Shown: positions 18,497-40,344, counted from the stretch's first letter. The stretch is DNA of 64,000 nt from an uncultured Candidatus Saccharibacteria bacterium (GCA_964510655.1 CAZEAY010000002.1:26613-90612); one strand, 5' to 3'. The notes: generated by a model from the letters alone, not told the origin. Translations and numbers: made by a program.

Positions 18497-18511
18497 GCCT
18501 CATCTCAAAGC

Positions 18512-18550: not shown

Positions 18551-18555
18551 TAAAT

Positions 18556-18762: not shown

Positions 18763-18821
18763 GATATTTATTGGTTATTTAACTCGCCCATGGTAACATA
18801 AAGACATAATTTTGCAAGTAT

Positions 18822-19427: not shown

Positions 19428-19640
19428 AAGATTGCATTATTTGCTGATATATAGTACAGTATAGCCACTAGTCATTTGCTTCTGTAGCTGGAAACAAAGG
19501 CTTTTTTAAGAATTAGAGTTGTTACTTGATCTGGTTTTACACTTAACTTAATCAGACTAGTATCTTATTTATCGGGCCTGTCGGGCCTTACCGACGGTTC
19601 GTTTTTTTGTGTTAATTAATAATTTGTAATTGAATTCAAG

Positions 19641-20060: not shown

Positions 20061-20070
20061 TTAAACTCCT

Positions 20071-20550: not shown

Positions 20551-20637
20551 AATTAAATTATAAATTAAAAATGTAAAGTTAAAAATTAAGATCTTAGATT
20601 TCATTTCTAATTTCTAATTTTTAATTTCTAATTAAAT

Positions 20638-23679: not shown

Positions 23680-23707
23680 TTGACTTATCGAGTCCTTCTG
23701 TTAATAT
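23680..23707 (+). promoter_or_regulatory. Sigma70-like promoter TTGACT-16-TAATAT upstream of tuf
   Basis: Good -35/-10 hexamers with a 16-nt spacer about 190 nt before the tuf ATG. Confidence 0.45.
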
Positions 23708-23894
23708 GGAGGCTACGCTAATGTGCGTGCTTTTTATTGTTAACAGGGGAGAGCAAGATAAAAAAGTTGTTATTTTTTTATCTTCGAACCAAGGAAGACA
23801 ATATCTTATCTAGTTATATTGTGTTGTTGTCAACAACATCACGTTAAAAAAGACAAGAAATTATTAATAGTTTATTAAGTATTTAAATAAAAGT

Positions 23895-25097
23895 ATGGCA
23901 GAAAAATTTGACAGGTCTAAGCCACACGTAAACGTTGGTACAATTGGCCACGTTGACCACGGTAAGACAACTACGACAGCAGCTATTTTGCATGTCTTAA
24001 ACTTAGCAAAGGATCAAGGCTACAGCGCTCGCGTTGAGGGTGTTGATGGTATTGATAATGCTCCAGAAGAAAAAGCTCGTGGAATCACGATTGCTCTTCA
24101 CCACTCTGAATACCAGACACCTAGTCGTCACTATGCTCATATTGACGCCCCAGGTCACGCTGACTACATCAAGAACATGATTACTGGTGCTGCTCAGATG
24201 GATGGAGCGGTATTGGTAGTAGCCGCCACTGATGGTGCTATGCCTCAGACTCGTGAGCACGTTCTTTTGGCTCGCCAAGTAGGTGTACCAAAGATGATCG
24301 TTTACTTGAACAAGTGTGATATGGTTGATGACCCTGAAATGATTGACTTGGTAGAAGAAGAAATTCGTGAGCTTTTGACCAAGCAAGAATTTGATGGTGC
24401 CAATGTACCTATCATCCGTGGTTCTTCTTTGAAGGCTTTGGATGCTACCTCTTTGGATGATCCATGGGCTCAAAAAATTATGGAATTGGTAAAGGCTATG
24501 GATGAATACATTCCTGATCCTGTTCGTGAAAACGACAAACCTTTCCTTATGCCAATCGAAGACATCTTCTCAATCGAAGGCCGTGGTACTGTTGTTACTG
24601 GCCGTATCGAGCGCGGAGTTGTGAAAGTGGGTGAAGAAGTGGAAATTGTTGGTATTAAAGACACCGCTAAAACCACTATCACTGGAATTGAAATGTTCAA
24701 CAAGCAATTGGAAGAAGGTATGGCTGGTGATAATGCCGGTATTCTTCTTCGCGGCTTGAAGAAAGACGATGTTACTCGTGGTCAAGTTTTGTGTAAGACT
24801 GGTTCCGTAAAGCCTCATACAGATTTCGTGGCTGAGGTATACATCCTTACCAAAGAGGAGGGTGGCCGTCATACTCCATTCTTCACTGGCTACAAGCCAC
24901 AGTTTTATGTTCGGACTACCGACGTAACTGGAGAAGTAACTCTAAATGAAGATGTAAAAATGGTTATGCCTGGAGATACTGTAACTTTCAACGTAAAGTT
25001 GGTAGCCCCAGTTGCTTTGGAAGAAAAACAGCGCCTTGCTATCCGTGAAGGAGGTAAGACTGTCGGCGCCGGTGTGGTTACTAAGATCAACGCCTAG
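23895..25097 (+). CDS. tuf: Elongation factor Tu
   Basis: It has [17 protein letters not shown] and NKCD motifs and is near-universal in sequence. Confidence 0.97.
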
Positions 25098-25113
25098 CTA
25101 GCTTAAGAGTGTT

Positions 25114-25509
25114 TTGACCCTTAAAAAAATGCCCACAACCGCTACAACTAAAACCAAAAAAGTTACCGCTAAGGCGAAAGCTAAACCAGAGGTTGAAAAA
25201 GATCTCTCCCGCCTTCGTATTAAGGTATCGGCTTATGAAAACAAAATTCTTGATGCTTCCGTCAAGCAGATTGTAGACACAGCTATGCGGTACGATGGTA
25301 AAGTTAGGGGACCAATACCTCTTCCAACCGAGATTAAAAAATATACGGTTAATCGCTCTAGTTTCATTGATAAAAACTCTCGTGAGCAATTTGAAATGAG
25401 AATTCATAAGCGGGTAATCGATATTGTGAGTCCATCTCCAAAAATTATCGAAAATCTCACAAACTTAAATTTACCATCTGGTGTCAATATCGACGTTAAG
25501 ATGATGTAA
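25114..25509 (+). CDS. rpsJ: 30S ribosomal protein S10, with a Lys/Thr/Ala-rich N-terminal extension
   Basis: The S10 core RIKVSAYENKILD...VRGPIPLPT... is present. An approximately 30-aa basic N-terminal extension precedes it. Confidence 0.85.
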   Translation: MTLKKMPTTATTKTKKVTAKAKAKPEVEKDLSRLRIKVSAYENKILDASVKQIVDTAMRYDGKVRGPIPLPTEIKKYTVNRSSFIDKNSREQFEMRIHKRVIDIVSPSPKIIENLTNLNLPSGVNIDVKMM

Positions 25510-25513
25510 AACT

Positions 25514-25540
25514 AAAAAACCGCCTTCGGGCGGTTTTTTA
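25514..25540. terminator. Bidirectional terminator (aaaaaaccgccttcgggcggtttttta)
   Basis: A GCCGCC...GGCGG-type palindrome with a TTCG loop, flanked by A- and T-tracts. Confidence 0.85.
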
Positions 25541-25551
25541 GTTTCTTTCTA

Positions 25552-25995
25552 CTAATCACTGATATTAAATATCGCCATAATTAATCTAGCTAAAAGTCCA
25601 CGTTTTTTCTTTGGAGCTTCTTTTTTTTCTATTCCACCACCTCCTCCATTCATACTTTGGTTGAGAGAAATTTGATTATTTATATTAATACCACTAGAAT
25701 CAGAATTTTTGTCTTCAGGTTTAGATTCTGGTGTGATTCCTCTGATTTCACCTTTCAATTGTTCAATTCTTTCTCGCCTTTCTCCTTCTAGGTTTGTTTG
25801 TGGTATCTCCTCTGTCTCCATGTGTCCATCGGGGTTTTCTGGAGGGGTTAGATTATCATTTTCAGGATTTTCTTGTTCTGTTTCGGTCGCATTTTCAGGT
25901 TTGGCGAGACTGCTCATGTCAACTATCTCTGCCCCATCTTGCCCCTCTTCTTTTACTTCTTCTTGATGGGGTTTAAAATTTTCCGCTGAATTCAT
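25552..25995 (-). CDS. Acidic, low-complexity (Glu/Pro/Asn-rich) hypothetical protein with a basic-hydrophobic C-terminus
   Basis: It is a 147-aa ORF with a strongly biased acidic composition. It sits on the opposite strand, wedged between rpsJ and rplC. Confidence 0.4.
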   Translation of the reverse strand: MNSAENFKPHQEEVKEEGQDGAEIVDMSSLAKPENATETEQENPENDNLTPPENPDGHMETEEIPQTNLEGERRERIEQLKGEIRGITPESKPEDKNSDSSGININNQISLNQSMNGGGGGIEKKEAPKKKRGLLARLIMAIFNISD

Positions 25996-26187
25996 ATTGA
26001 TTGTGGTTAGCTAATTCATTAAATTATAGCATGATAGTCCTTCTTGTCATCAAGGAAGGGGATATAAAGATATCGTAAGAGTTTGGTGTTTGACTTTTTT
26101 CGGTTATTTGATAGTATTATCCCAAGCTCGCTTAGGGCTCTTGTTTTTTGTACGGAGCACCTAATACCATTTAAATAAAGCATTTCT

Positions 26188-26330
26188 ATGAATCCCGTGG
26201 TATTAAATGGCATCGTTGGGGACATAGGAAAGGGTGGAGCTGAATCAATTAAGTAAATTAACAAATTTTAATATAGATGGCATAGGAGAGTCCCAACCGG
26301 ACAATGCCATTTTCCACTAACGGGATGAAA
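26188..26330 (+). repeat. Conserved ~140-nt leader element, copy B (upstream of and overlapping the rplC start). Hairpin ATGGCAT-N20-ATGCCAT at 26277..26310.
   Basis: Collinear ~75% identity to 12845..12987, ending in the identical ...AATGCCATTTTyCACTAACGGGATGAAA. Confidence 0.6.
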
Positions 26331-26948
26331 TTCATTCTTGGCACAAAAGTAAATATGACTCAGGTTTTTGAGGATAATGGACGGGTAACTACCGGTACCC
26401 TTATTTCTGCGTTGCCAATGAAGGTTACTCAGGTTAAAAGCTTGGCTAAGGATAAATATGAATCTGTCCAAGTTGGCTCCGGAGAGAAGAAAGCTAAAAA
26501 TGCCTCAAAGGCGGTGTTAGGTCACTTGAAAACCAATACTCCTGCTGAAGGAAAGGCTTTTCGTCATATTCAAGAATTCCGTCTCTCCAGTCCAGCTGTC
26601 AATGTTGGCGACACTATCGACGTCTCAGTTTTTGCTGAAGGGGATGTCGTGACAGTCTCTGGGCTTTCGAAATCCAAGGGTTTCCAGGGGGTAGTAAAGC
26701 GTCATGGTTTTCATGGAGGACGTCGTTCTCATGGACAGAAACATTCCGAGCGTGAGCCAGGTTCTATTGGTGCCACCAGTCCTCAACGCGTTTTTCGCGG
26801 TACTCGAATGGCGGGACGAATGGGAGGAGAAAGAATTGCTGTTAGAAATTTAAAGGTGGTAAAAATTGATAAAGAAAACAATCAAATTTTGGTTAGTGGG
26901 GCCATTCCTGGTCGCCGTGGGACTTTGGTTGAAATCGTAAGTAAGTAG
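26325..26948 (+). CDS. rplC: 50S ribosomal protein L3. The start is placed at the second ATG, MKFILG...
   Basis: MKFILGTKVNMTQVF matches the canonical L3 N-terminus. The upstream ATG at 26304 lies inside the conserved hairpin. Confidence 0.9.
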   Translation: MKFILGTKVNMTQVFEDNGRVTTGTLISALPMKVTQVKSLAKDKYESVQVGSGEKKAKNASKAVLGHLKTNTPAEGKAFRHIQEFRLSSPAVNVGDTIDVSVFAEGDVVTVSGLSKSKGFQGVVKRHGFHGGRRSHGQKHSEREPGSIGATSPQRVFRGTRMAGRMGGERIAVRNLKVVKIDKENNQILVSGAIPGRRGTLVEIVSK

Positions 26949-26967
26949 AAACAATTTAAATACAAAT

Positions 26968-27642
26968 ATGACAAACGCCAAATTACAAACTAAAATATTC
27001 AGTCAGACTGGTAAGGAAGCCGGCAATATTGAATTACCTGCCAATGTTTTTGGTGTAAAATGGAATGCTAATCTTGTTCATCAAGTGGCTACTTCCATGA
27101 TGTCTAATGCTCGCAATACGGTGGCTGATACTAAAGGCCGAGGAGAAGTTTCTGGTGGCGGTAAGAAACCTTGGCGTCAAAAAGGTACTGGCCGGGCTCG
27201 TCATGGTTCTTCTCGTTCTCCTATTTGGAAAGGGGGAGGAGTTACTCATGGTCCAACTTCAGAAATAAACTTCAAACGAAAGATCAACAAAAAGATGAAG
27301 GCTAAGGCTTTATTCGCTATTCTTTCGGCTAAACTAAAAGATGGTGAAGTAATCATGCTGGAAGACTTAAAATTGTCTGCCCCTAAGGTTAAGTTGGCTC
27401 AAGATACTCTCGCTAATTTGGCGAAAAGTGGTTTTGAGAAGATAAACTACAAGGTGGGCAAGCGCGTTATTATTGCCACTCCAGAGCTTGATGAAAATAT
27501 GCAAAAGAGTTTCCGCAACATTAAGAGCGCTACCGTTGAGGAAGTGCGCAATCTAAATCCATTGTCTTTGTTGAATTACAAATATGTCGTTTTTGTTCGA
27601 CCAGAGGATAGTCTTAAACAAGTAATTGCTCGCGTAAAATAA
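26968..27642 (+). CDS. rplD: 50S ribosomal protein L4
   Basis: L4 family by motif and by order after L3. Confidence 0.9.
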   Translation: MTNAKLQTKIFSQTGKEAGNIELPANVFGVKWNANLVHQVATSMMSNARNTVADTKGRGEVSGGGKKPWRQKGTGRARHGSSRSPIWKGGGVTHGPTSEINFKRKINKKMKAKALFAILSAKLKDGEVIMLEDLKLSAPKVKLAQDTLANLAKSGFEKINYKVGKRVIIATPELDENMQKSFRNIKSATVEEVRNLNPLSLLNYKYVVFVRPEDSLKQVIARVK

Positions 27643-27647
27643 ATACC

Positions 27648-27953
27648 ATGTCCGTTATCAGTAAATCAATTAAAGCTGCTACTCTTACCCTTTCTCGTCC
27701 ACGCGTGACCGAAAAGGCTACTTTCTTGTCGGGAGCTAAAAACCCTGTTTACACCTTTGAGGTGGTTAAAGAGGCGACTAAGGCGGAAATAATTAAAGTA
27801 TTTAAGAGTAAGTATAAGTTAGAGCCAGTGAAGGTGAATATTGTAAATTTACCTCGCAAATCTACTTTCAAGCGTGGTCACTTGGGTTTTAAAACTGGTG
27901 TCAAAAAAGCGTTAGTTTTTTTGAAGCCGGGAGAAAAACTAGAATTGATCTAA
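27648..27953 (+). CDS. rplW: 50S ribosomal protein L23
   Basis: L23 family by size (101 aa) and position. Confidence 0.85.
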   Translation: MSVISKSIKAATLTLSRPRVTEKATFLSGAKNPVYTFEVVKEATKAEIIKVFKSKYKLEPVKVNIVNLPRKSTFKRGHLGFKTGVKKALVFLKPGEKLELI

Positions 27954-27978
27954 CTAATTAAGTTTTACGAATAATAAG

Positions 27979-28818
27979 ATGAAATCCTACAAACCAACAA
28001 CCGCTTCTCGTCGTCACACCGTTACGATTGACTATCGTAAGCTTTTGAGTGGTGACAAACCAACTAAGTCTTTGACTAAGGGGGCCAAACGTCATGTTGG
28101 CCGCAACAATGTTGGCCGCATCACCGTTCGTCATAAGGGGGGTGGACATAAGCGAACTTTCCGCACCGTAGATTTTATTTATAATAAATTTAATATTCCC
28201 GCCAAGATTGAGACTATTGAATACGACCCAAATCGCTCCGCGTTTATTGCCCTAGTATGTTACAACGACGGCGAACGACGCTATCACGTTGTTCCTAGGG
28301 GGATGAAAGTAAACGATCGTTTCATTGTTTCTGAGGCCGCTGACCTAAAAACCGGCAACCGTTTGAAATTAAAAAATATTCCCGTTGGTACTTTTATCTA
28401 TAACTTAGAGATCAAACCTTTGGCTGGTGCTAAAATGATCCGCTCTGCCGGAAACTACGCCGAAGTTATGTCCAACGATGCTGGCTATACGATGGTTAAA
28501 ATGCCATCGACTGAAGTGCGCAAATTTGATGAAAATGCTTGGGCCTCAGTTGGAGAAATTTCCAACGAAGACCATCATCTAGAAAACTATGGTAAGGCGG
28601 GTAAATCTCGCTGGAAGGGTATTCGTCCAACTGTTCGCGGTACCGCTATGAACCCAGTTGATCACCCATACGGAGGAGGAGAAGGCGTCCAGGGTCGTGG
28701 TCTACGCCGAGCCAAGAGTATGTGGGGTAAGCCAACTGGCGGAGAGAAGACACGTACACCTAAGAAATACTCCAACTATCTTATCGTTTCTCGTCGGAAA
28801 GTAGGAAAAAAGAAATAA
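27979..28818 (+). CDS. rplB: 50S ribosomal protein L2
   Basis: It has the motif GRNNVGRITVRHKGGGHKR and is highly conserved as L2. Confidence 0.95.
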   Translation: MKSYKPTTASRRHTVTIDYRKLLSGDKPTKSLTKGAKRHVGRNNVGRITVRHKGGGHKRTFRTVDFIYNKFNIPAKIETIEYDPNRSAFIALVCYNDGERRYHVVPRGMKVNDRFIVSEAADLKTGNRLKLKNIPVGTFIYNLEIKPLAGAKMIRSAGNYAEVMSNDAGYTMVKMPSTEVRKFDENAWASVGEISNEDHHLENYGKAGKSRWKGIRPTVRGTAMNPVDHPYGGGEGVQGRGLRRAKSMWGKPTGGEKTRTPKKYSNYLIVSRRKVGKKK

Positions 28819-28830
28819 TTAACTCAACTA

Positions 28831-28860
28831 AAAATACCCCTAAAAATAGGGGTATTTTTG
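28831..28860 (+). terminator. Terminator after rplB (aaaatacccctaaaaataggggtattttt)
   Basis: A TACCCCTA/TAGGGGTA stem with a T-tract. It interrupts the normally contiguous rplB-rpsS junction. Confidence 0.75.
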
Positions 28861-28933
28861 ACATATACTCCCACCACTTGCTTTTTATATCTATATATGG
28901 TATAATATAAGAAGGTAAAAAAGGAGTAGTTCC

Positions 28934-29212
28934 ATGAAAAAGTATCTAGGTTTGGTTTTTCTGATGTGTCTGGTGGTATTGACCACCACGGGCTGTGCTT
29001 TCTTTACTCAGGATCACAGTGCCTACCTTCGAGAAAAACAGAAGATTCGTCAGGATCAAGGTGTTGGTCAAGTTGCCTCCTACGAATCAAATCGGTTGGC
29101 AGATCGAGAGCCTGTGACTTCAGGACTCATTGATCTGTGTATCGATATCGTGGCTTATCAGCGGGTAGTGAGGGATTGTTCTTCTTCCTCCACCACTTTG
29201 CAGGGTGAATAA
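28934..29212 (+). CDS. Small lipoprotein (signal peptide with lipobox LTTTG|C). SD-led gene with higher GC.
   Basis: An SD AAGGAG sits at 28921-28926, 7 nt before the ATG. It has MKKYLGLVFLMCLVVLTTTGC and is 92 aa. Confidence 0.5.
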   Translation: MKKYLGLVFLMCLVVLTTTGCAFFTQDHSAYLREKQKIRQDQGVGQVASYESNRLADREPVTSGLIDLCIDIVAYQRVVRDCSSSSTTLQGE

Positions 29213-29226
29213 CTTGACGACATGTA

Positions 29227-29262
29227 GCCCCCCTCAACCCTTTGGGTTGGGGGGATTTTTTA
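29227..29262 (+). terminator. GC-rich hairpin terminator (cccccctcaaccctttgggttggggggatttttt)
   Basis: An imperfect C6AACCC/GGGTTG6 stem followed by T-tracts. Confidence 0.6.
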
Positions 29263-29339
29263 TCCCCCCTTTTTTTATTGAGATAATTCTTCTCCGTGTT
29301 AAAATAAAAGGAATTTTACTAATCTATTAATTTTATTTT

Positions 29340-29807
29340 ATGTTGTTGGAAGCTTCACCCGTCATGATGGAGAATAAACCAAATATTTTTCGTCGCTGGG
29401 CGAGTCTCATCACTCTTTTTATTTTTATTTCGATTTTTAGTTTTGCCGCCTTTAATTATTTTTCTGGTTCTTCTCTAACAGCTGGTTTGTTTAATACCTC
29501 GGCTTATTGTAGTGATGATAAAGGAAATTCGGCGGTTATTCTGTATAACGGTATGCCGGTTGTGAATGTTGTCACTAAGCTAGTTGGAGAATCATCTACT
29601 ATCAAAAAAATTACTTACACTGATTATTTGGGAGAACTAAAAATTGTAATGGATCCCGTAGCGGCTGATCCTATTTTGGTTACTAATATAAAATCTGCCA
29701 TGACTAAAGCGGTCCAAAATTTAACAAAAGAGCAGTCTCTTAAGATAATTGAATTTTCGGCTACTAAATTTGTGACTGCTCCCTTTAAGTGCAAGTACAC
29801 TAAATAA
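29340..29807 (+). CDS. Hypothetical membrane-anchored protein (155 aa), upstream partner of the giant secreted protein
   Basis: An N-terminal TM helix (ITLFIFISIFSFAAFNYF), then a soluble domain. A 3-nt gap separates it from the next ORF, which suggests coupling. Confidence 0.45.
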   Translation: MLLEASPVMMENKPNIFRRWASLITLFIFISIFSFAAFNYFSGSSLTAGLFNTSAYCSDDKGNSAVILYNGMPVVNVVTKLVGESSTIKKITYTDYLGELKIVMDPVAADPILVTNIKSAMTKAVQNLTKEQSLKIIEFSATKFVTAPFKCKYTK

Positions 29808-29810
29808 TTT

Positions 29811-32800
29811 ATGACTAAAATTAAGTATTTTTTATTGAGTTTCCTGCTATTGTTTCCGTTTTTTGTTTCTGCCGTTGATGTTTTTACCACTAGTTACTTA
29901 AAGGAAAAATATCGACAGACTTATGCCACTTGTGGAGTTAAAGCTGTGCCTGGGAGCGATACTGTCCATGATTTGGGTCCCGTTGACAGTTATGGTCAAT
30001 GTTCTGGCTCCTATCCCGACGGATTGGCCGCCGACGCTTATTTGCCTGGTTGCAACCCAATAGCAGGAGAAACCTGGGGGCCTTGGGAGGGTCAGCTATT
30101 CCATGAAAAATCCGGGGCCACTTATCGTCCAGAAGAAATACATCAAGGTTCTACTGCTTATTGTGGTGTGGGCGTAATTAAGTGTGGGGAAGGCTTTAAT
30201 TTCAATGGGGTCACTATGACTGGTGATTATTGTAAGGCTCCGTACATCAAAGATGGTTTTTTTAGTAAGGATGGACAATATGTTGATGAATACTGTATTG
30301 ACTATCAAGCTCCGACTTTTTTAGGTAAATATATTACAGATGGAACAAAAATGGTTCAGTCTTGTTGCACTTCTTTAGCTCACCATGAGACTCACACTTT
30401 TCCTATTATCGGAGATGTAGCCAATGTATTGAGCCAGTGGAACTTGCCGCTGGCTGGAAATTTGGCCGCCGGGGTAAACAGTGCTTCACCGGTAGATTTG
30501 GTTAATAAGGCTAGTTACGATGAATGCTGTAAGGCTCCTGACCAATGTTATGAATTTGGTTTTAATGTGATTAACGCTAGCTTCGCCTTAATAAATCCTC
30601 CATCCACAGGGGCGGCCATCTTAATGACAATGGCTAATAGCATCTTAAATTCGGCGACGGGAGAAATTGGTAAGTATAAAAATCAAGTCTGTCGTTCAGC
30701 TGAACAATCTCAAAATGATCAAACTGCCGCCTCTTATATTGATGATGCTGCCACAATTACCAAACTAGTTAACACTTCTGGGGTAACAGATGTTTTAGCT
30801 AATATAACTTTCTATTTAAGAATTTTACCTACTTATAATAAATGTGGTGGTGGTTCTGCAAAAAATAATTCACCCAAGACTGGTCTCCTAGCCACAACGC
30901 TTGCTTCTAGTGATACTGTCTCAGGTTTCTCATTTACTCCCGAGGCTGCGGCTGGGGGTAAGAGCTGTTCCTTTAAGGTGGTAAAAGGTGGAGTGGATAC
31001 AAACCAACGTGTTTATGTTGCCAATAATTATGTTTTTTTGGATAGTCCAACTTTGAGTTTGAATTCTTCAAAACTCTTTAACAATCAGCCTGGTTACTCC
31101 ACCTCAATGTTAGAAAGAGCTAGGCAGATGGTTAGTCCAGCCATTTACACCCCTAATAAAACTTCTTGGTATTGGAATGGAATTAAGTTTGTTCAAGTAG
31201 ATGATCCTCTGACAGCCTTAAATTTGAATGTTATTTATGCTGGTGTCTCTGCGACTTCACCCGATTTCTTTAATTGTAATGTCAATGATATTCCGAATGT
31301 CGGTCATAGTAATTTGTTTAAAACATTTTTAGCCACTGCTCCAAGTTTATCAATGTGTCCAGTCATTAATTATGGTGATGCTAATAATGACAATCTTAAT
31401 AATTGGACGGACGTTCAGTGTTATCTAAATTTGTTAGGGGATAAGAGTTCCCCCGCCTGTAATCCAGATAAAAAATTAATGGCCTTTAATGACAATAGCG
31501 GGACTGTTATTACTGTCAATGACCTTATGAGAGAGTTGCATGTTATGTCTGACCCCAATCAGCTTATTTATTACAGTTCTGTTAAAAAATATTTAGCTGA
31601 GTCACCTTATAATACAAACTTGCAGTCATGCTTGTTTGGTCGCAATCCAAAAAATAATACATCTTTATTTTCTCCAGCCTTGCCAGATGTTGTGTATAAG
31701 GCGGTCTGCGGAAATAAACTAATTGAAGCTGGTGAGTCGTATGAAACCTGTCCCGCTGATGTGCCGGCACCGGTTGTTAATCCTACCCTCACCTTGATTC
31801 CCTCATCTGGCCTCACTCTTTCTCGGGGTGGAGTGCAGGTTTCAGCAACCACTACTCAATCTCTAGCAAATAATTCCGCAATCTCTTTAACTGCCACTAT
31901 ACCAGCTTCAACTTATTCATCTCGAGCTAGTTCGGTCTCTAAAAAAATCACCTGGACAGGAGTTGATCAAACTATTTGTCCACCTAAGACTGTTGATTGC
32001 AAAATAACCAGTGGAACAGTTTCTTGTTTAGCTCTTACTTCCACTTGTAACTTTACCCTTACTAAAAACACAACAATCCAGCCCAAGTTAGTTCAAATGG
32101 TTGGTATTCAGATTCCTGATACTCCTGCAGTTACTAATTTCACCGCCCCCACTTTTGACTATGGTGCTGGTCAACCATCTCATCGTCTCTGGTTAACCTT
32201 CAATGCCACCGGCTCAGTCAGTTCAATCACCAAGGTCCCTGGTTATGATAAATGCTTTAGCTTCACTGCTTCAACTGATACTGCCTCAGCCGCTTGTCCT
32301 CTTAACCAGCCTATTAAACCTGGTACTAAGTGTGGTATCTACTTACAGGCTAGTAGTGATCGTTGTGTCGTAGCAGTTAAATATCTAACTGGTACTAACA
32401 CGACTAATACTCGTTACTTTGAACAAATCTTCTACAATTCCACCCCTACCACTACGGGGAAAGATACGATTAAGGATCGGGGGACTCGAGCTCCGTCGCC
32501 AGATGATTTTATTCCAGTGGTCCTAACTTCTCCTGTGCCAACGCCAACACCGATTCCTGCGCCAGCTCCTGCTACAAGTCCAACTCCAGTCGTTAATTAC
32601 GCCCTCTCCCTCATTCGTCCTACTACTGGATCTCTAGCTTTCTACTCTTCTCTCAAACTTGTTGCCGCTGATATTACCACCTCTCTGCCAGCTGGCACTA
32701 AGGTTGATCTAAAAGTGAAACGCTCTCCAACTACTCAATCGGGAAGTTCCAGAGCCACTGGTTACAAACTTCGCGTGAACTGGGCTGGCACTTCTTGTCC

Positions 32801-33368
32801 AGAATCAATCACAGACTGCAGTGTTTCACCAGCGGCCATCACTTGTCCCGCGATTGAAACTACTTGTCTCTTTGACTTAACTAAAGATACTCGTGTAGCT
32901 CCTTCATTTACAGCAACACCCGAGTATCCCATCGATACCACCCCTAAAACCCTAACCCTCTCCGTTAACAACCAATCTACTGGCTACATTATCGGTAGCA
33001 AAGACATGGCTGCTAATCCCGTAGAATTCAACTGCGGTCAGGTGGAAGAAATTGGTAATGCTAAGATCTGGCCTGGCACAGCTTGTTCCCAAACCTATCC
33101 TCATGGAACAATTATCACTTTAGTGGCTTCTGTCCCCGGTAATCTCTCTGATGGTAAATCACTCACTCGTGGCACCTTCTCTGGCTGGGGGAGTAATTGT
33201 ACCTCGATGACCACTTGGACTGATATTACTGGTAAATCCTATCAAGCCTGTCAAATCAAACTTGAGGCTAACAAAACCATTTCTGCTTCTTTTACGGGAC
33301 CGACTTCGTGGTTGCTCCGGCCGTTTATCCAGCTCGGGAATATTTGGAACTCATTGTGGTCACGGTAG
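29811..33368 (+). CDS. Giant (1185 aa) Cys-rich secreted protein with internal 4-Cys repeat modules, a Pro/Thr linker, and a C-terminal domain shared with ORF 49365..52550
   Basis: It has the signal peptide MTKIKYFLLSFLLLFPFFVSA and many paired Cys. It has two internal repeats (CPPKTVDCKITSGTVSCLALTSTCNFTLTKNT and CPESITDCSVSPAAITCPAIETTCLFDLTKDT). A linker PVPTPTPIPAPAPATSPTPV follows. The C-terminal ~120 aa (NQSTGYIIGSK...FNCGQVEEIGNAKIWPGTACSQTYPHGTIITLVAS...) is homologous to the C-terminus of the 1061-aa protein. Confidence 0.7.
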   Translation: MTKIKYFLLSFLLLFPFFVSAVDVFTTSYLKEKYRQTYATCGVKAVPGSDTVHDLGPVDSYGQCSGSYPDGLAADAYLPGCNPIAGETWGPWEGQLFHEKSGATYRPEEIHQGSTAYCGVGVIKCGEGFNFNGVTMTGDYCKAPYIKDGFFSKDGQYVDEYCIDYQAPTFLGKYITDGTKMVQSCCTSLAHHETHTFPIIGDVANVLSQWNLPLAGNLAAGVNSASPVDLVNKASYDECCKAPDQCYEFGFNVINASFALINPPSTGAAILMTMANSILNSATGEIGKYKNQVCRSAEQSQNDQTAASYIDDAATITKLVNTSGVTDVLANITFYLRILPTYNKCGGGSAKNNSPKTGLLATTLASSDTVSGFSFTPEAAAGGKSCSFKVVKGGVDTNQRVYVANNYVFLDSPTLSLNSSKLFNNQPGYSTSMLERARQMVSPAIYTPNKTSWYWNGIKFVQVDDPLTALNLNVIYAGVSATSPDFFNCNVNDIPNVGHSNLFKTFLATAPSLSMCPVINYGDANNDNLNNWTDVQCYLNLLGDKSSPACNPDKKLMAFNDNSGTVITVNDLMRELHVMSDPNQLIYYSSVKKYLAESPYNTNLQSCLFGRNPKNNTSLFSPALPDVVYKAVCGNKLIEAGESYETCPADVPAPVVNPTLTLIPSSGLTLSRGGVQVSATTTQSLANNSAISLTATIPASTYSSRASSVSKKITWTGVDQTICPPKTVDCKITSGTVSCLALTSTCNFTLTKNTTIQPKLVQMVGIQIPDTPAVTNFTAPTFDYGAGQPSHRLWLTFNATGSVSSITKVPGYDKCFSFTASTDTASAACPLNQPIKPGTKCGIYLQASSDRCVVAVKYLTGTNTTNTRYFEQIFYNSTPTTTGKDTIKDRGTRAPSPDDFIPVVLTSPVPTPTPIPAPAPATSPTPVVNYALSLIRPTTGSLAFYSSLKLVAADITTSLPAGTKVDLKVKRSPTTQSGSSRATGYKLRVNWAGTSCPESITDCSVSPAAITCPAIETTCLFDLTKDTRVAPSFTATPEYPIDTTPKTLTLSVNNQSTGYIIGSKDMAANPVEFNCGQVEEIGNAKIWPGTACSQTYPHGTIITLVASVPGNLSDGKSLTRGTFSGWGSNCTSMTTWTDITGKSYQACQIKLEANKTISASFTGPTSWLLRPFIQLGNIWNSLWSR

Positions 33369-33438
33369 TTTGAATAAAAATTTTAAGTTAAAAAAAGAAC
33401 CCCAGGTGGTAATCCTGGGGTTTTGTTTATCCTTTGGT

Positions 33439-33945
33439 TTATGGCCAGCTAACCTCTTGGAAGATCTCGGTTTTCTTGATTAGAGTCTCTTCCTCAATTT
33501 CTTTTAGTACTCCGTCTGTTGTGGGCTGTTGCTTACCTTGGGTGGTTTGGGAAATGGCGCAGGTCGGTGCCCCATTTTCATCGAGACTCCCGTAGTCGAT
33601 TATGTGCCAACCTTCTTTCTTTAGGGCTACAATCTCGGTAGGAGTGAGGTAGGCTCCGAGGATAATGTTAGTTCGGTTATTTTGAATGTTCATTACCCAC
33701 CAGAAGGTGTTTTTGCGGTGTTTGGCCCTACCCCAAGCGGTGACATGTCCTTTTTCCAGGTGAGCATTGGCTCGGCTGTAACTGGTGTGGACTTGTCCCC
33801 AGTTTAGCCTAATAAAGTCAGGCAAAGGGTTCGTTATGGGGCTAAGATTTTTTGTCTGTATTTCGTTGGTATCCACCAACGGCTTAGCACAACTGCACCA
33901 CAGCATAATGCCTAGAAATAAGGCTAAAATGCCTAACTTGCTCAT
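33439..33945 (-). CDS. Hypothetical lipoprotein/secreted protein (168 aa), function unknown. It may be cell-wall related.
   Basis: It has the signal peptide MSKLGILALFLGIMLWCSC (lipobox-like) and a His/Trp-rich core (HVTAWGRAKHRKNTFWW). Confidence 0.4.
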   Translation of the reverse strand: MSKLGILALFLGIMLWCSCAKPLVDTNEIQTKNLSPITNPLPDFIRLNWGQVHTSYSRANAHLEKGHVTAWGRAKHRKNTFWWVMNIQNNRTNIILGAYLTPTEIVALKKEGWHIIDYGSLDENGAPTCAISQTTQGKQQPTTDGVLKEIEEETLIKKTEIFQEVSWP

Positions 33946-34394
33946 TGGCGGGCTCCTTATTTGTGAAATGAGACCTAATTATTTAGGATCTTCTTTAATT
34001 ATACCACAATTTGTTAAAAAGTACAATAGAAAGGTGGTTCTAATCCCTTTTTTACTTACAATCTTTCCACCTAAAAGAGGTGCCTTCTGGTGAATTGTTC
34101 AAGATATTGCTTTGTTTGACATTATTATTTTTTTTGCTATGATTAGGTTCGAGTTAGTTTAGTGTTATTTACTATTAACTCGATTTGCAAAAGTCTTGTT
34201 TTTCTGGGACCCCTATCGAGGTTCGATATCCGTGTGCTCAGTCGGGAGGCGGATGGACCGTGGTATAGGATTTTTATTTTGCGATTTTTATTCGTAAAAA
34301 TCGCGTCCGAATCAGCAGATTCGCGGCTTGGCCGCAGGATGGTTGTTTCGATGCAAGGATATAGATAAATATTAAAGAAAAATAGTTTAATTCA

Positions 34395-34748
34395 ATGCCA
34401 AGATCACTTAAAAAAGGACCATATATCGAAGAACGGTTAATGAAGAAAATTACCGGCAAGAAACCACAGGAAACTGGGGTAATTAAAACGTGGTCACGTC
34501 GTAGTCAGATTAGTCCAGAAATGGTAGGTTTTACTTTTGGTGTTCATAACGGCAAGAGCCATATTGAAGTTTTTGCCACTGAGGATATGGTTGGACATCG
34601 TTTGGGGGAATTTTCTCCAACTAAGAAGTTCTTACGCCACGGAGGTAAGATGCAGAAAGAGTTAGAACAGAAGAAGAAAGAGTCAGAAATTGCGGCGGCT
34701 AAATCTGCCAAAGAAACCACCGCGGCGGGAGCTGGTAAGAAAAAATAA
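34395..34748 (+). CDS. rpsS: 30S ribosomal protein S19, with a Lys-rich C-terminal tail
   Basis: The S19 core is present (SLKKGPY, WSRRS, HNGK). Confidence 0.9.
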
Positions 34749-34754
34749 TAAAAC

Positions 34755-35204
34755 ATGAAAGCATACCTCTCAAACTATCATCAATCTCCTCGCAAGGTTC
34801 GCTTAGTAGCCTCTTTAATTAAAGGCAAGAAAGTGAATGAAGCGATGGTAGAACTAGACTTCGTTCTCAAGCGGGCGTCTTTGCCGATTAAACAACTTAT
34901 TGCTTCGGCCGTCGCTAACGCTAAAAATAATTTCGACACAGAGAAAAACGATTTATATATCAAAGAATTAAGGGTTGATAAGGGAATTGTTATGCGCCGA
35001 ATGATTCCAGGTGCTCGGGGACGAGGCTATCCTTTGAAGCGTCGCTCTAGTCATATTTCCGTTCTTTTGGATATCAAAGGAGAAGAGAAAAAGAAATCAA
35101 AAGGTAAGAACCAAAAGGTAAAAACCGAAGAGGTTAAGGTTGAAAAAACAAAGAAGACTGTTGTTAAAAAACCAGCCGTTAAAAAAGCTGTCACTAAAAA
35201 ATAA
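34755..35204 (+). CDS. rplV: 50S ribosomal protein L22, with a long Lys-rich C-terminal tail
   Basis: An L22 core is followed by KGEEKKKSKGKNQKVKTEEVK...KK. Confidence 0.85.
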   Translation: MKAYLSNYHQSPRKVRLVASLIKGKKVNEAMVELDFVLKRASLPIKQLIASAVANAKNNFDTEKNDLYIKELRVDKGIVMRRMIPGARGRGYPLKRRSSHISVLLDIKGEEKKKSKGKNQKVKTEEVKVEKTKKTVVKKPAVKKAVTKK

Positions 35205-35206
35205 TC

Positions 35207-35869
35207 ATGACTCATAGCGTTCACCCATATTCACATAGATTAGGCGTTATCCGAGATTGGAAATCTCGCTGGTTTGGTACTCAGGGTAAATACCAAGAGT
35301 TTCTAAAGACCGATGTTTTGTTGCGCGAATTTTTAGAGAAGCGTTTCCGTGGTTTTTATGTTGATTCGATTGAAATGGAACGCAGTGAAAATGCTTATAA
35401 AGTGATCATCAAGACATCTCGCCCAGGTATGATTATTGGCCGTAGTGGCGAAGGGGCAGTGAAGCTTAAGAACGATATTATGAAGCAATTACACCGCTTA
35501 AATGTCACTATCCCTAAAGAAGTTAAAATTGATATTGAAGAAGTGAAAGATCCTGATTCCCATGCTGCAATTGTTGCTTATGGTATTGCCGAAGCTTTGG
35601 AAAAGCGTTTGCCTTTCCGTCGCGTCATGAAACAAGCAGTTGAGCGCGTAATGGCTGACAAAAATGTTCTCGGAGTAAAAGTGACTTTGTCCGGTCGTTT
35701 GGGTGGAGCGGAAATGGGTCGCATTGAAAGTCTTAGAAACGGTCAAGTGCCTCTACAGACTTTGCGTGCCGATATCGATTTTGCTCGTGAGAAGGCCTAT
35801 CTCTCTTATGGCGTTATTGGGGTTAAGGTCTGGATTAACCGGGGGGAAATTTTTGAGGCTAAGAAATAA
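35207..35869 (+). CDS. rpsC: 30S ribosomal protein S3
   Basis: S3 KH-domain motifs are present and the gene order fits. Confidence 0.9.
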   Translation: MTHSVHPYSHRLGVIRDWKSRWFGTQGKYQEFLKTDVLLREFLEKRFRGFYVDSIEMERSENAYKVIIKTSRPGMIIGRSGEGAVKLKNDIMKQLHRLNVTIPKEVKIDIEEVKDPDSHAAIVAYGIAEALEKRLPFRRVMKQAVERVMADKNVLGVKVTLSGRLGGAEMGRIESLRNGQVPLQTLRADIDFAREKAYLSYGVIGVKVWINRGEIFEAKK

Positions 35870-35874
35870 ATACC

Positions 35875-36294
35875 ATGTTGTTACCTAAAAAAGTAAAATT
35901 TCGTAAATGGCAAACTGGTCGGATTAATCCGAACAAAGTTCGCGTTGAGACTAGAGGTACAGAGTTATCTTTCGGTTCTTTTGGTCTCAAAGCAGAAACA
36001 ACCGGGCGAGTAAAGTCTAACCAAATTGAAGCTGCTCGAAAAACCATTGCTCGTAATATGGGTAAGACTGGTAAGTTGTGGATCCGTATTTTTCCTGACC
36101 GTCCTTTTACTCGTAAGGGGGCCGAAGTGGGTATGGGTAAAGGTAAGGGAGATCCTCAGGGTTATGAGGTTGAGATTTTTCCTGGTCGGGTTTTATTTGA
36201 AGTCGATGGTTTGGAGGAAACCTTGGCAAGAGAGTCTCTTCGCAAGGCTGGCGCCAAATTACCGCTTAAATCGAAAGTAGTTTCCCGTAACTAA
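35875..36294 (+). CDS. rplP: 50S ribosomal protein L16
   Basis: It has an L16/L10e fold and the motif MLLPKKVKFRK. Confidence 0.9.
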   Translation: MLLPKKVKFRKWQTGRINPNKVRVETRGTELSFGSFGLKAETTGRVKSNQIEAARKTIARNMGKTGKLWIRIFPDRPFTRKGAEVGMGKGKGDPQGYEVEIFPGRVLFEVDGLEETLARESLRKAGAKLPLKSKVVSRN

Positions 36295-36295
36295 T

Positions 36296-36493
36296 ATGAA
36301 AACAAAAATTACTGAAACAAATGAAAAAGAATTAGTAAGTATGTTGGCCGCCAAGCGAACAGAATTGTCCAATTTTAGATTTGGTATCGCTGGTACTAAG
36401 GTTAAGAACGTTAAAACTATCCGTAATTTGCGTCGTCAGATTGCTCAGATTTTGACCAAATTAAATGTGTTTGCTAAGACAACTGCGAAATAA
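36296..36493 (+). CDS. rpmC: 50S ribosomal protein L29
   Basis: A 65-aa helical protein at the L29 position. Confidence 0.8.
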
Positions 36494-36498
36494 TTTAT

Positions 36499-36756
36499 AT
36501 GGAAAAGATTACCCCACAAATAAATAAAGAAACTGGTAAGACTCTAACGGGAGTTGTTGTTTCTGATAAGATGGACAAGACTGTTGTTGTTTCGGTTAGT
36601 CGCTTTATCAAAGTTCCAAAATACAACAAATATATTTCGCGTGATAAAAAATTCAAAGCCCACGATCCAGAGAACAAGTGTAAAGTGGGTGATCGTGTAA
36701 CAATCCGCGAAACCAGGCCGATTTCTAAAGATAAGCATTTTGAAGTAATCTTCTAA
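36499..36756 (+). CDS. rpsQ: 30S ribosomal protein S17
   Basis: S17 OB-fold ([14 protein letters not shown]). Confidence 0.85.
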
Positions 36757-36766
36757 TACCACTACC

Positions 36767-37138
36767 ATGATACAAGACCGTTCTCTAGTAAAAATAGCTG
36801 ACAACACTGGCGCCAAAATTGGTCGCGTGTTTAAAGTACTTGGTCATTCTAAAAAGCGCTATGCGGGCATTGGTGATTTGGTAGTTATTTCTATCCAGAC
36901 TGCTGAGCCTCGTAAGGCGATTAAGAAGAAAGATGTTGTTCAGGCGGTTGTGGTTCGGACTAAAAATTCTTTCCGCCGTAAGGATGGCTCCTATGTTCGT
37001 TTTGATGAAAACGCCGTAGTTATTTTGGAAAAAGATAAAAAAGATCCAAAGGGCGGACGTATCTTTGGTCCTATTCCACGTGAAATGGCCGAATTAGGTT
37101 ATCAGAAAATTATTTCTTTGGCCCCCGAAGTTGTCTAG
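36767..37138 (+). CDS. rplN: 50S ribosomal protein L14
   Basis: It has MIQDRSLVKIADNTGAK and is highly conserved as L14. Confidence 0.95.
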   Translation: MIQDRSLVKIADNTGAKIGRVFKVLGHSKKRYAGIGDLVVISIQTAEPRKAIKKKDVVQAVVVRTKNSFRRKDGSYVRFDENAVVILEKDKKDPKGGRIFGPIPREMAELGYQKIISLAPEVV

Positions 37139-37155
37139 ACAATAGAATAAATATT

Positions 37156-37461
37156 TTGAATATCAAAAAAGGCGACATTGTAATAATTAAAACTGGTAAG
37201 GACCTTGGTAAAAAGGGGAAGGTTTTGCATACTTTTCCAGCTTTAGAAAAAATTGTGGTAGAAGGGGTAAATCTTCGCAAAAAACACAAGCGGGCTCGCA
37301 AGTCTAATGAAAAAGGTCAGGTAGTTGAAATTTCTTCACCAATTGCTGTCTCTAACGCCGCTGTCTTTTGTTCTAGTTGTGAAAAAGGGGTACGTTTGGG
37401 GAGTAAAGAGATCAAAGGTAAGAAAACTCGAGTTTGTGTAAAGTGCGGTAAGGAAATGTAA
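37156..37461 (+). CDS. rplX: 50S ribosomal protein L24 with a C-terminal 4-Cys (CxxC...CxxC) zinc-ribbon-like tail
   Basis: It has the KOW motif IKKGDIVIIKTGKDLGKKGKV. The C-terminus is CSSCEKG...CVKCGKEM. Confidence 0.85.
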   Translation: MNIKKGDIVIIKTGKDLGKKGKVLHTFPALEKIVVEGVNLRKKHKRARKSNEKGQVVEISSPIAVSNAAVFCSSCEKGVRLGSKEIKGKKTRVCVKCGKEM

Positions 37462-37481
37462 TCAGTAAGGCAATAAATATT

Positions 37482-38015
37482 ATGAAAACTACAGCCGAAA
37501 AAATTCAAGAAAGTTACAAGACCCTAAAAACAGAGTTAGGAGTCAAAAATGTCATGGCTCTACCTCGTATTACTAAGGTGGTAATTAACTCTGGTACTGG
37601 AAAAGCTAAAGATAAGAAACGCAATGAGCTAATAGCGGATCGTTTAGCCAAAATTACTGGTCAAAAACCATCTCCTCGGGGAGCTAAGCAGTCAATTGCT
37701 ACTTTCAAACTTCGTCAGGGTGAGGTCATCGGAATGACTGTAACTTTGCGCGGGAAAAGGATGTACGGCTTTTTGGATAAACTAATTAATGTGGCTTTTC
37801 CTCGAACTCGCGACTTTAAAGGTTTTGACGAGAAGGGGGTAGATGAGCTTGGTAATATGACCATTGGCCTTCGGGAGAATATTATTTTCCCAGAGACGAC
37901 TGATGAAGAACTTAAGGATGTTTTTGGCTTTGCTATTACTATTGTCACTACCGCTAAAGACCGCAAGTCAGCCCTCGCTTTCTTTAAGGCTATTGGTTTT
38001 CCTTTTAAGAAATAG
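37482..38015 (+). CDS. rplE: 50S ribosomal protein L5
   Basis: L5 family by position and motifs. Confidence 0.9.
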   Translation: MKTTAEKIQESYKTLKTELGVKNVMALPRITKVVINSGTGKAKDKKRNELIADRLAKITGQKPSPRGAKQSIATFKLRQGEVIGMTVTLRGKRMYGFLDKLINVAFPRTRDFKGFDEKGVDELGNMTIGLRENIIFPETTDEELKDVFGFAITIVTTAKDRKSALAFFKAIGFPFKK

Positions 38016-38199
38016 ATCGTCCAGAAAAACTAAATTAACCTATATAAAGCTGTCCAATTGTCTGGGCAGTTTTTGTTTGACTTTTTGAGTATTTCTTGAT
38101 AGACTCTAGATTAGTGTAAATTAGAGATTTTTAACTGAAACCCCCTCGATTTTCCTCTTTTTTGAGGAAGTATAGGAAGGGTCATTTATTTTAATAAAA

Positions 38200-38385
38200 A
38201 TGGCAAAAACATCGGTAATCGCAAGATCTAAAAAGACACCTAAATTCAAGTCTCGTGTCGTGAGACGTTGTTTTCGTTGTGGTCGCAAACATGGTTTTAT
38301 TAGAGATTTCGGTTTATGCCGTATTTGTTTCCGAGAATTGGCTAACGAAGGTAAAATTCCAGGCGTTAAGAAATCTTCCTGGTAA
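38200..38385 (+). CDS. rpsZ: 30S ribosomal protein S14, type Z (zinc-binding, 61 aa)
   Basis: It has [23 protein letters not shown]. Confidence 0.9.
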
Positions 38386-40334: not shown

Positions 40335-40344
40335 GATTACGACC

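Follow-up and report, generated by a model that had tools for sequence, protein, structure and literature searches.

We examined a 64,000-nt window of DNA from an uncultured bacterium (CAZEAY010000002.1, positions 26613-90612; "the window" is this whole stretch) in which the str, S10 and spc ribosomal protein (r-protein) genes keep their canonical order and are interrupted by long spacers, the largest of them between rplB and rpsS. As a gene order resistant to rearrangement the S10-spc string is the textbook case, and the 16 proteins it encodes serve as the standard marker block in the placement of uncultured bacteria. The initial annotation of the window described a special shattering of the S10 operon in this genome; a synteny comparison shows instead that the same junctions, and no others, are open in most related loci. 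What was called shattering is the architecture of a whole class, with its breakpoints fixed; it is a habit of the lineage, not a one-off accident. We regard it as likely that the cluster of Paceibacteria is a chain of autonomous units whose spacers act as cargo sites, with an attenuated leader in front of rpsS. A search with the window's L2 returned only metagenome-assembled genomes (MAGs) of Paceibacteria/Parcubacteria, members of the Candidate Phyla Radiation (CPR), the best match in the genome collection being a Candidatus Vogelbacteria contig (82% identity); judged by these L2 relatives, the window belongs to a Paceibacteria (Parcubacteria, CPR) genome.

We measured the gap at each junction from rpsL to secY in 80 related loci drawn by similarity to the window's L2 and S19, counting a gap as large when it exceeded 300 nt and scoring each junction only in those loci that could be scored. 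Large gaps occur at rpsG|fusA (81%), fusA|tuf (97%), rpsJ|rplC (58%), rplB|rpsS (95%) and rplE|rpsZ (73%), and at the remaining 19 junctions they are never seen (0%), a sharply bimodal distribution. The rplB|rpsS gap has a median of 1.8 kb and a maximum of 5.6 kb; in a recount with metagenome loci added, the two genes are spaced by at least 400 nt in 84 of the 107 loci that hold both (79%). The tuf and rpsJ genes form a pair, with a median gap of 12 nt in 59 loci. At rpsQ|rplN, the classical S10|spc border, the string is closed: the gap measures 10 nt in the window, has a median of 11 nt and shows no promoter motif in 101 loci, and the break is found at rplE|rpsZ instead. The rpsS-rplE unit spans the Escherichia coli S10|spc boundary unbroken.

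Within the window all 11 genes from rpsJ to rpsQ lie in canonical order on the + strand (Table 1), and S10, L2 and S19 were confirmed by Pfam. The initial annotation placed two breaks in the S10 order, and both were recovered: the rpsJ|rplC spacer measures 794 nt and contains one foreign open reading frame (ORF), and the rplB|rpsS spacer measures 5576 nt and contains four. The ORF listing returned the annotated ORFs at the same coordinates, including the acidic 147-aa one on the - strand and the four of the rplB|rpsS island. Internal junctions from rpsS to rplE are all 20 nt or shorter, and the ORFs from rpsS to secY, adk and map are tightly packed in that listing. Promoters and terminators were predicted by consensus scan and folding, with stabilities given as z-scores against shuffled sequences. 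The terminators that had been read after rpsJ and rplB fold well, at -23 kcal/mol (z -7.2) and -17.7 kcal/mol (z -5.9), respectively. The contiguity of a canonical S10 operon, free of internal terminators and promoters, is not found here, since terminators follow rpsJ and rplB and promoter-like sites precede rplC and rpsS.

The slot between rplB and rpsS is conserved and its cargo is variable, because few families recur, singletons are many and the window's own ORFs have no counterparts: the ORFs in this gap in 59 related loci and the window fall into 19 small families and 103 singletons, and the four island ORFs of the window have no homologue in the 59 loci. Recurrent cargo comprises a - strand, N-terminally anchored DUF3298 protein (29 loci), dgkA directly after rplB (16 loci), and pyrE, pyrF and a HIT hydrolase. 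The closest relative holding both rplB and rpsS is L082, a Joint Genome Institute (JGI) metagenome contig whose L2 and S19 are 90% and 91% identical to those of the window. Its site is empty, with the rplB stop, a terminator, a TTGACT-16-TGCTATGAT promoter, a leader and rpsS following one another within ~200 nt. A filled site is present in L162, a 53-kb Logan contig assembled independently from another run (L2 86% identical), in the order rplB, 175-aa signal-peptide ORF, 157-aa transmembrane protein, 1463-aa protein, rpsS. Its rplB terminator is almost identical to that of the window and its first island promoter is homologous. The 157-aa protein resembles the window's 155-aa membrane protein (tm155) weakly (E = 0.003) and has the same size and position, and the last island gene of the window, lip168, is absent. 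Island proteins of the two genomes are 27-47% identical, as against ~83% for r-proteins. Because site and order are shared, the left junction is homologous and the 1463-aa protein is a homologue of the 1185-aa secreted protein of the window (the giant), the pair of membrane protein and giant is orthologous in the two genomes.

Other relatives carry different cargo at rplB|rpsS (identities to the window in brackets): an unrelated ORF, 1038 aa or longer, immediately downstream of rplB in L163 (91%), small ORFs and an AAA_14 ATPase in L165/L166 (82%), a 134-aa ORF in L169 (86%), a 248-aa - strand ORF in L172 (77%) and a - strand lipoprotein-like ORF in L001 (82%); in L167 (80%) and L168 (79%) the site is empty. 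Giants also occupy other spacers, namely rplE|rpsZ in L167 (1855 aa, 15142-20709) and L172 (1029 aa, 9711-12800), both containing PG_binding_1, and fusA|tuf in L168 (865 aa). A neighbour-joining (NJ) tree of L3, L4, L23 and L2 has the topology (((window,(L082,L163)),L165),L162), then (L167,L001), then L168. The most economical account is that the membrane protein and giant pair was present in the ancestor of this five-genome clade and was later lost in L082 or replaced in L163 and L165.

The breakpoints are predicted to be borders of transcription units. We sought the simple sigma-70 promoter pattern TTGACN, a 15-18 nt spacer and TANNNT within 200 nt upstream of each gene and found it before rpsS in 121 of 137 loci (88%), before rpsZ in 78%, before tuf in 56% and before fusA in 31%, with 0-2% for internal genes. 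The motif before rpsS is independent of gap size, being present in 11 of the 13 loci with an rplB|rpsS gap below 120 nt, and with a similar spacer it recurs in L082, L162, L167, L168, L169 and L172. A promoter with a GCUY..RAGC hairpin within 25 nt is found in 42% of loci for rpsS and 40% for rpsZ, and in at most 1% for every internal r-protein gene; upstream of rpsL this strict pattern occurs in 1 of 14 loci. The hairpin is short and GC-rich, begins ~6-10 nt past the -10 element of the rpsS promoter and is followed by a U-run. The first 35 nt past the -10 fold to -5 kcal/mol or lower in 87% of 112 rpsS leaders, compared with 28% of shuffles (p = 2e-31). Stem sequences vary by sub-clade (GAGCUC/GAGCUC versus CCCGC/GCGGG) within the same design. 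The rpsS ATG lies a median of 39 nt from the -10, and in most Paceibacteria the leader consists of the 5' hairpin and U-run (36-39 nt). The promoter-plus-hairpin design also lies upstream of rpsZ and, in the window's close relatives, of rplC, whose promoter and hairpin are conserved in 7 genomes. Directly 3' of rplB, the terminator layout of A-tract, GC-hairpin and T-tract is found in six close relatives too.

The leader of rpsS in the window is longer. The initial annotation had expected rpsS and the genes after it to need a promoter or leader of their own, and the region supplies a TTGACA-16-TGcTATGAT site (11 of 12 consensus positions) followed by a structured and conserved leader of 251 nt from the -10 to the ATG (folding z -3.1 against shuffles). 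The 449 nt before rpsS, described there as ~440 nt of hairpin-rich noncoding DNA, are indeed without a credible gene but are not uniform noncoding sequence, since they hold two predicted promoters, those of lip168 and rpsS, in addition to the leader. A 68-aa ORF within the leader (34162-34368) was rejected as a gene because the L082 leader is too short to hold it. The perfect 10-bp stem that the annotation singled out, GCGATTTTTA-TTCG-TAAAAATCGC, exists 3 nt to the right of the position given and is particular to the window: it is absent from L082, L162 and L167, and its place in L169 is taken by another AU-rich hairpin. What is conserved is the long imperfect hairpin preceding the stem. A weak similarity between the GAATCAGCAGATTC palindrome of this leader (34308-34322) and a repeat of L082 (CACGTGAATCTACTGATTCAG) was judged to be chance, as was a match of the 3' part of the leader to the hairpin-rich region upstream of L082 rpsZ (E = 2.3, opposite strand).

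A covariance model built from the window and L082 leaders and searched over 172 loci (~1.9 Mb) matches only upstream of rpsS and in six genomes: the window, L082, L169, L162, L167 and L172 (49-100 bits). The element (34212-34281) lies 69 nt downstream of the -10 of the predicted promoter and 113 nt upstream of rpsS, and this order is kept in the six genomes. It consists of a 58-nt hairpin with an imperfect stem of 21 bp and, directly after it, AUUUUUAUUUU; all 6 genomes have a U-rich tail here, which is the layout of an intrinsic terminator. The basal stems, bulges and GAU internal loop are ~90% conserved within a leader that is otherwise not alignable, and the length of the apical part ranges from 11 to ~57 nt. 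Across the six sequences the hairpin partners pair in 98.3% of cells, compared with 34-45% for slid partners, and 2 of 21 pairs are compensatory, for example GGUUC/GAACC to GAUUC/GAAUC in L162. In L082, L162 and L172 the U-tract is followed by the rpsS ATG after ~35-45 nt with no further promoter, and therefore nine essential genes must be read through the hairpin. Rfam 15 gave no match at the gathering threshold in the whole window, and up to E = 10 on 33900-34420 only a chance match to sraA. When the intergenic regions of the window were compared with 80 distant loci by nhmmer and blastn, only promoter-sized matches were returned, and the leader element is traceable only in closer relatives. 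A regulatory RNA, for which the initial annotation had proposed to look for covariation, thus has a conserved candidate in six genomes, with covariation that is suggestive only. By analogy with known leaders, the 58-nt hairpin and U-tract are a candidate attenuator or r-protein leader.

In the explanation that we favor, the str-S10-spc order would be kept as [rpsL-rpsG] [fusA] [tuf-rpsJ] [rplC-D-W-B] [rpsS...rplE] [rpsZ...secY-adk-map], each unit presumably closed by an intrinsic terminator, and the rplC, rpsS and rpsZ units would each open with a promoter of the sigma-70 type, immediately followed by a short 5' hairpin and U-rich sequence. Because there would be no co-transcription across the five boundaries, the spacers could tolerate insertions and may serve as high-turnover landing sites for accessory genes, very often encoding giant secreted proteins or proteins with a membrane anchor. 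Such cargo would make up the 5.6-kb rplB|rpsS spacer, as three self-contained units, namely the lip92 gene, an operon of tm155 and the giant, and lip168 in convergent orientation. The genes from rpsS to rplE would be transcribed from 34116-34143 through the 251-nt leader, in which the 58-nt hairpin and U-tract most likely form a partial terminator (attenuator). A bound protein would set the read-through, and a ribosomal protein is the most plausible candidate, as with L4 at the E. coli S10 leader. Where transcription starts and stops, that the hairpin attenuates and what it binds are points that we infer. A more specific version we hold only tentatively and think rather doubtful: six modules with non-classical borders, of which the rplC, rpsS and rpsZ modules each carry a promoter and a 5' hairpin/U-run; in this genus, an undescribed protein-binding attenuator of 58 nt that re-couples the rpsS module to r-protein supply; and spacers that are preferred, fast-turnover expression sites for giant host-contact surface proteins of episymbionts.

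Several observations weigh against this explanation. The promoters and terminators are predictions from consensus matches, and promoter-like sites in the region are in slight excess only (34 versus 26.7 in shuffles). The terminator of rplB has a tail of 5 T and could leak, so that some read-through into the island is possible. The 58-nt hairpin is no more stable than shuffles (z -1.1), which fits an element constrained in sequence more than in stability. As many as 9 of 500 shuffles reach its covariation score, related sequences can do so without structure, and most pairs are invariant. The inference of loss and replacement depends on an NJ tree of 842 columns without bootstrap, and the percentages given above describe this part of Paceibacteria, not all CPR.

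An assembly artefact, that is, a contig chimeric at ~28860 and/or 34390, has a probability close to nil in our judgment. The short-read assembly L081 (Logan SRR14271365) does break in the leader, its contig starting 40 nt upstream of rpsS, but L162 carries the same gene order on one contig with homologous rplB terminator and first island promoter, 95% of related MAG contigs with both genes have genes or long spacers at rplB|rpsS, and composition shows no step at either junction. With an independent assembly of the same order and a homologous left junction, the mis-assembly that the initial annotation had named as grounds for refutation is answered: the contig is not mis-assembled. The proteins from S19 to S17 are identical in L081 and the window, and the L081 break could reflect upstream strain heterogeneity (island present or absent) or low coverage. 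A mobile genomic island recently acquired in the S10 operon of this one lineage is very unlikely. It would account for four ORFs without a Pfam, NCBIfam or PHROG family, for lip168 and the giant being near-orphans, for the atypical codon usage of lip168 and for the absence of the island from L082, the closest relative with both flanks. An 8-nt repeat, TTTGACAT, also occurs at 28855-28862 and 34115-34122, in register with the empty site of L082, but it includes the -35 hexamer itself, and as a target-site duplication it is probably to be rejected, L162 having no TTGACA at the homologous left junction. Scans with Pfam, NCBIfam and PHROG profiles found no integrase or transposase, the only tRNA lies 27 kb away, and there are no terminal repeats longer than 8 nt. 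The giant has genome-typical codon usage and GC content at third codon positions (GC3) and a paralogous C-terminal domain elsewhere in the window, and the island is shared with the basal L162 at 27-47% identity next to ~83% for r-proteins, which points to long-standing vertical descent and rapid divergence; only for lip168, at most, is a recent acquisition a good fit.

The initial annotation had also suggested that the giant is placed under ribosomal-operon-like expression. Surface genes could borrow such expression through read-through from rplB or from a highly transcribed, origin-proximal position, and giants are indeed co-oriented with the r-protein genes in the spacers of the window, L162 and L163 (rplB|rpsS), L167 and L172 (rplE|rpsZ) and L168 (fusA|tuf), with the short T tail of the rplB terminator as a further point in favor. 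We consider this coupling unlikely all the same, since rplB and the giant are separated by two terminators (28829-28860 and 29230-29254), tm155 and the giant have a promoter of their own within three promoter- and terminator-bounded island units, and the codon adaptation of the giant is ordinary and below the r-protein reference. Many spacers hold - strand or housekeeping cargo (DUF3298 protein, dgkA, pyrE/F, HIT, ABC transporter) and several are empty, and the genes lie on a leading strand, its GC skew positive throughout, where co-orientation would be expected in any case. More weight, though still on the doubtful side, is due to the view that the hairpin and U-tract are not a regulated attenuator and either terminate an independent small RNA started at the 34116 promoter or act as a passive insulator or stabilizer. 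Promoter, 5' hairpin, long hairpin and U-run do resemble a complete small-RNA gene of ~130 nt, and the usual Paceibacteria leader of 5' hairpin and U-run is typical of 5' stabilizers and would also stop upstream transcripts. However, L082, L162 and L172 have no promoter after the U-tract and their rpsS genes must be transcribed through the hairpin, and the ~90% conservation of basal stems, bulges and loops, with an apical part varying by up to 40 nt, exceeds the needs of a plain terminator. We favor the attenuated rpsS leader, with a passive role as a serious rival.

Pfam, NCBIfam and PHROGs returned nothing meaningful for the four island ORFs, the acidic ORF or the 237-aa ORF of the fusA|tuf gap. 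The giant is Cys-rich, as the annotation had stated, with 38 Cys (3.2%) compared with 0.58% in 12 other ORFs of the window. The compositions of tm155, the 92-aa lip92 and the giant are typical or near-typical and lip168 alone is atypical: the giant has a codon adaptation index (CAI) of 0.61 and a GC3 of 0.34, ordinary genes having a CAI of 0.59-0.72 and the r-protein reference 0.68, and lip168 has a CAI of 0.48 and a GC3 of 0.53 versus ~0.33. Among 1.84 billion representatives only one full-length homologue of the giant was found, P0002 (1463 aa, E = 7e-180), which is encoded in L162 and is 47% identical in the C-terminal half and 27% in N-terminal parts. The last ~125 aa of the giant are 58% identical to the C-terminus of another ORF of the window, 49365-52550 (+), which encodes a 1061-aa secreted protein with PG_binding_1 and PKD domains. 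The same kind of C-terminal all-beta domain with a Q(L/M)(G/A)N(I/L) helix also ends the CPR surface proteins P0004, P0006 and P0007, and the shared domain may be a lineage-specific surface-anchoring module.

Lip168 matched only itself among 5.8 billion proteins and no homologue of lip92 was found; a word-indexed homologue search returned only the self-matches of the giant and lip168, and an exact-sequence contig look-up of the giant returned nothing. AlphaFold2 modelled the giant from a single sequence with a predicted local distance difference test (pLDDT) of 35, and its C-terminal half from a 10-sequence alignment with a pLDDT of 44.6, where confidence was moderate for two parts only, the C-terminal helix and the final all-beta domain of ~120 aa. 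In a Foldseek search of the PDB no match fell below E = 0.04, template modelling (TM) scores were at most 0.12, and no fold was assigned to the giant. The pair of tm155 and the giant appears to be native: codon usage is typical, the C-terminal module recurs elsewhere in the window, and an orthologue lies at the same site in L162. Lip168 is probably a recent acquisition, as its orphan status, its absence from L162 and its CAI and GC3 suggest. The island cargo may have a surface or adhesin role.

Homologues of the acidic ORF are encoded on the - strand of the same rpsJ|rplC gap in L001, L082 and L167. The family has a disordered Glu/Asn/Pro-rich N-terminus, and its members have in common a RIEQL(K/R) motif, a Gly run and an LLxRLLMALFG-like C-terminal segment, which is hydrophobic or amphipathic. 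By these comparisons the ORF is a real conserved gene of this genus-level clade, in which it always lies antisense in the rpsJ|rplC gap. In L165 this gap (449-7407) also holds a seven-gene branched-chain-type ABC transporter. The 237-aa ORF of the fusA|tuf gap is found at the same place in L082 (53% identity), L167 (43%), L001 (42%) and, weakly, L168 (25%); L171 has a 235-aa ORF in this position.

The arrangement resembles inter-operon insertion of the Brandis type, in which a collinear translation-gene cluster receives unrelated gene sets between transcription units, core order and orientation are kept, and the inserted sets are lost or changed in descendants; here, likewise, relatives have empty, orthologous or different sites. 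Brandis-type insertions lie at classical borders (rpoBC|str, str|S10), whereas here two lie inside the S10 operon of E. coli and Bacillus subtilis (rpsJ|rplC and rplB|rpsS) and one inside spc (rplE|rpsZ). Occupancy is also far higher here (79-95% of loci), the borders are consistent across the class, a promoter/hairpin cassette is common to them, and the cargo is mainly membrane and giant secreted proteins.

Stem-loops at the 5' terminus are known to stabilize bacterial mRNAs, such as ompA in E. coli and ermC and aprE in B. subtilis. Similar to these is the short GC-rich hairpin that opens 87% of Paceibacteria rpsS leaders, at the very 5' end of the transcript, but here it is always followed by a U-run and is common to the leaders of rpsS, rpsZ and, in close relatives, rplC; the hairpin and U-run could equally be a terminator of upstream read-through. 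The E. coli S10 leader mediates transcription attenuation by L4 as well as translational control. Like it, the rpsS leader of the window is a long 5' leader of a multi-gene r-protein operon with a hairpin and U-run through which the downstream genes are transcribed. In contrast, rpsS and not rpsJ is the first gene, sequence and Rfam similarity are absent, and L4 is encoded in the preceding, separately terminated unit; the element is known from sequence alone, and the relation is one of analogy, not homology. The narrow distribution of E. coli-type S10 leader control has been discussed previously (PMC3616713). Eckert and Weinberg (2020; PMC7247131) described candidate ribosomal leaders, including an Alphaproteobacteria L2 leader upstream of rplB-rpsS-rplV-rpsC, which is likewise a lineage-restricted structured RNA at an internal S10 point and implies an internal point of transcription or regulation. 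That study contains no CPR/Patescibacteria motif and none directly upstream of rpsS, and the present element occurs in six genomes only. In our literature searches neither this split nor an rpsS leader was described for CPR, which is not proof of novelty.

These results indicate that a CPR class has kept the gene order and moved the operon borders, with promoters before rpsS and rpsZ and terminators after rpsJ and rplB. One practical consequence is a warning that the marker block is where contigs from these organisms will frequently break or contain foreign genes. The cluster also offers a natural experiment on r-protein stoichiometry when an L4-controlled S10 operon is cut in three. Little is known about gene regulation in CPR, for which the class-wide 5' hairpin/U-run leader and the genus-level 58-nt hairpin are candidate cis-regulatory RNAs. 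The spacers mark the gain and loss of lineage-specific giant surface proteins, likely host-interaction factors of episymbionts. The clade-wide breakpoint map and the two candidate leader motifs are the transferable results.

Table 1. Features of the ribosomal protein gene cluster in the window; promoters, terminators and leader elements are predicted.
Feature	Position	Strand	Remarks
fusA	20638-22788		ORF listing
237-aa N-terminally anchored ORF	22930-23643	+	fills the fusA|tuf gap
tuf-rpsJ unit	23680..25544	+	promoter-like site 23680-23707; tuf 23895-25097; rpsJ 25114-25509; bidirectional terminator 25509-25544
Acidic Glu/Asn/Pro-rich 147-aa ORF	25552-25995	-	promoter ATGACA-16-TGnTATAAT at 26050-26023
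rplC-rplD-rplW-rplB unit	26090..28860	+	promoter 26090-26117; ~185-nt leader; terminator 28829-28860
5' hairpin AGCUCGCUUAGGGCU and U-run in rplC leader	26125-26139	+
rplC	26325-26948	+	start at 26304 possible, 26325 likelier
rplD	26968-27642	+
rplW	27648-27953	+
rplB	27979-28818	+
Island unit 1	28878..29269	+	promoter TTGCTT-17-TGgTATAAT 28878-28906; terminator 29230-29254, second hairpin to 29269
lip92	28934-29212	+	92-aa signal-peptide/lipobox-like protein; island unit 1
Island unit 2	29278..33424	+	promoter 29278-29305; bidirectional terminator 33396-33424
tm155	29340-29807	+	155-aa N-terminally membrane-anchored protein; island unit 2
Giant	29811-33368	+	1185-aa secreted Cys-rich protein; starts 4 nt after tm155
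lip168 (island unit 3)	33439-33945	-	168-aa signal-peptide protein; promoter TTGTAC-17-TGgTATAAT 34026-33998
rpsS-operon promoter	34116-34143	+	TTGACA-16-(TGc)TATGAT; 11/12 consensus match
5'-terminal leader hairpin	34149-34183	+	begins 6 nt past the -10; -12.8 kcal/mol, z -3.0
Long imperfect hairpin	34212-34269	+	then U-tract AUUUUUAUUUUG 34270-34281; candidate attenuator/protein-binding leader element
Perfect 10-bp AU-rich stem-loop	34282-34305	+	-10.2 kcal/mol, z -3.1
rpsS-rplV-rpsC-rplP-rpmC-rpsQ-rplN-rplX-rplE unit	34395..38015	+	rpsS 34395-34748
Start of rpsZ module	38068..38385	+	promoter-like TTGACT-17-TAGACT ~38069-38097; leader, then rpsZ 38200-38385

Several minor features of the region were noted. 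The ribosomal cluster is also cut off from its usual neighbors: upstream of rpsL (window 1-19600) lie tpiA, pgk, recJ, RNase H, comEC and an M50 protease, not rpoBC; map is followed (43900-64000) by ndk, unknown ORFs, a beta-CASP RNase, two giant surface proteins (PG_binding/PKD; reprolysin and Big_7), a transfer-messenger RNA (tmRNA) at 56859-57240 and ftsH; and none of infA-rpmJ-rpsM-rpsK-rpsD-rpoA-rplQ was seen among the ORFs scanned in the window. L30 has been reported absent in CPR. There are only 10 nt between rpsE and rplO in the window (40334-40345), which leaves no rpmD (L30) gene. Lys- or Gly/Arg-rich extensions are present on S10, S19, L22 and S5.

A spacer of the L082 r-protein string encodes a 432-aa polytopic membrane protein (14280-15578) that looks NRAMP-like by eye, and downstream of this gene (15640-15730) lies a long perfect inverted repeat with a third tandem copy of the arm (CACGTGAATCTACTGATTCAG). 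A 385-aa ORF of the window at 45088-46245 (+), which has no Pfam match, may have been horizontally acquired; its GC3 is 0.58, its CAI 0.49 and its local GC content 0.52 versus ~0.40. Bacteria normally read AUA with a lysidine-modified CAU tRNA, and a UAU anticodon is unusual. ARAGORN and Rfam agree on a tRNA-Ile with anticodon UAU at 61896-61969 on the - strand of the window.

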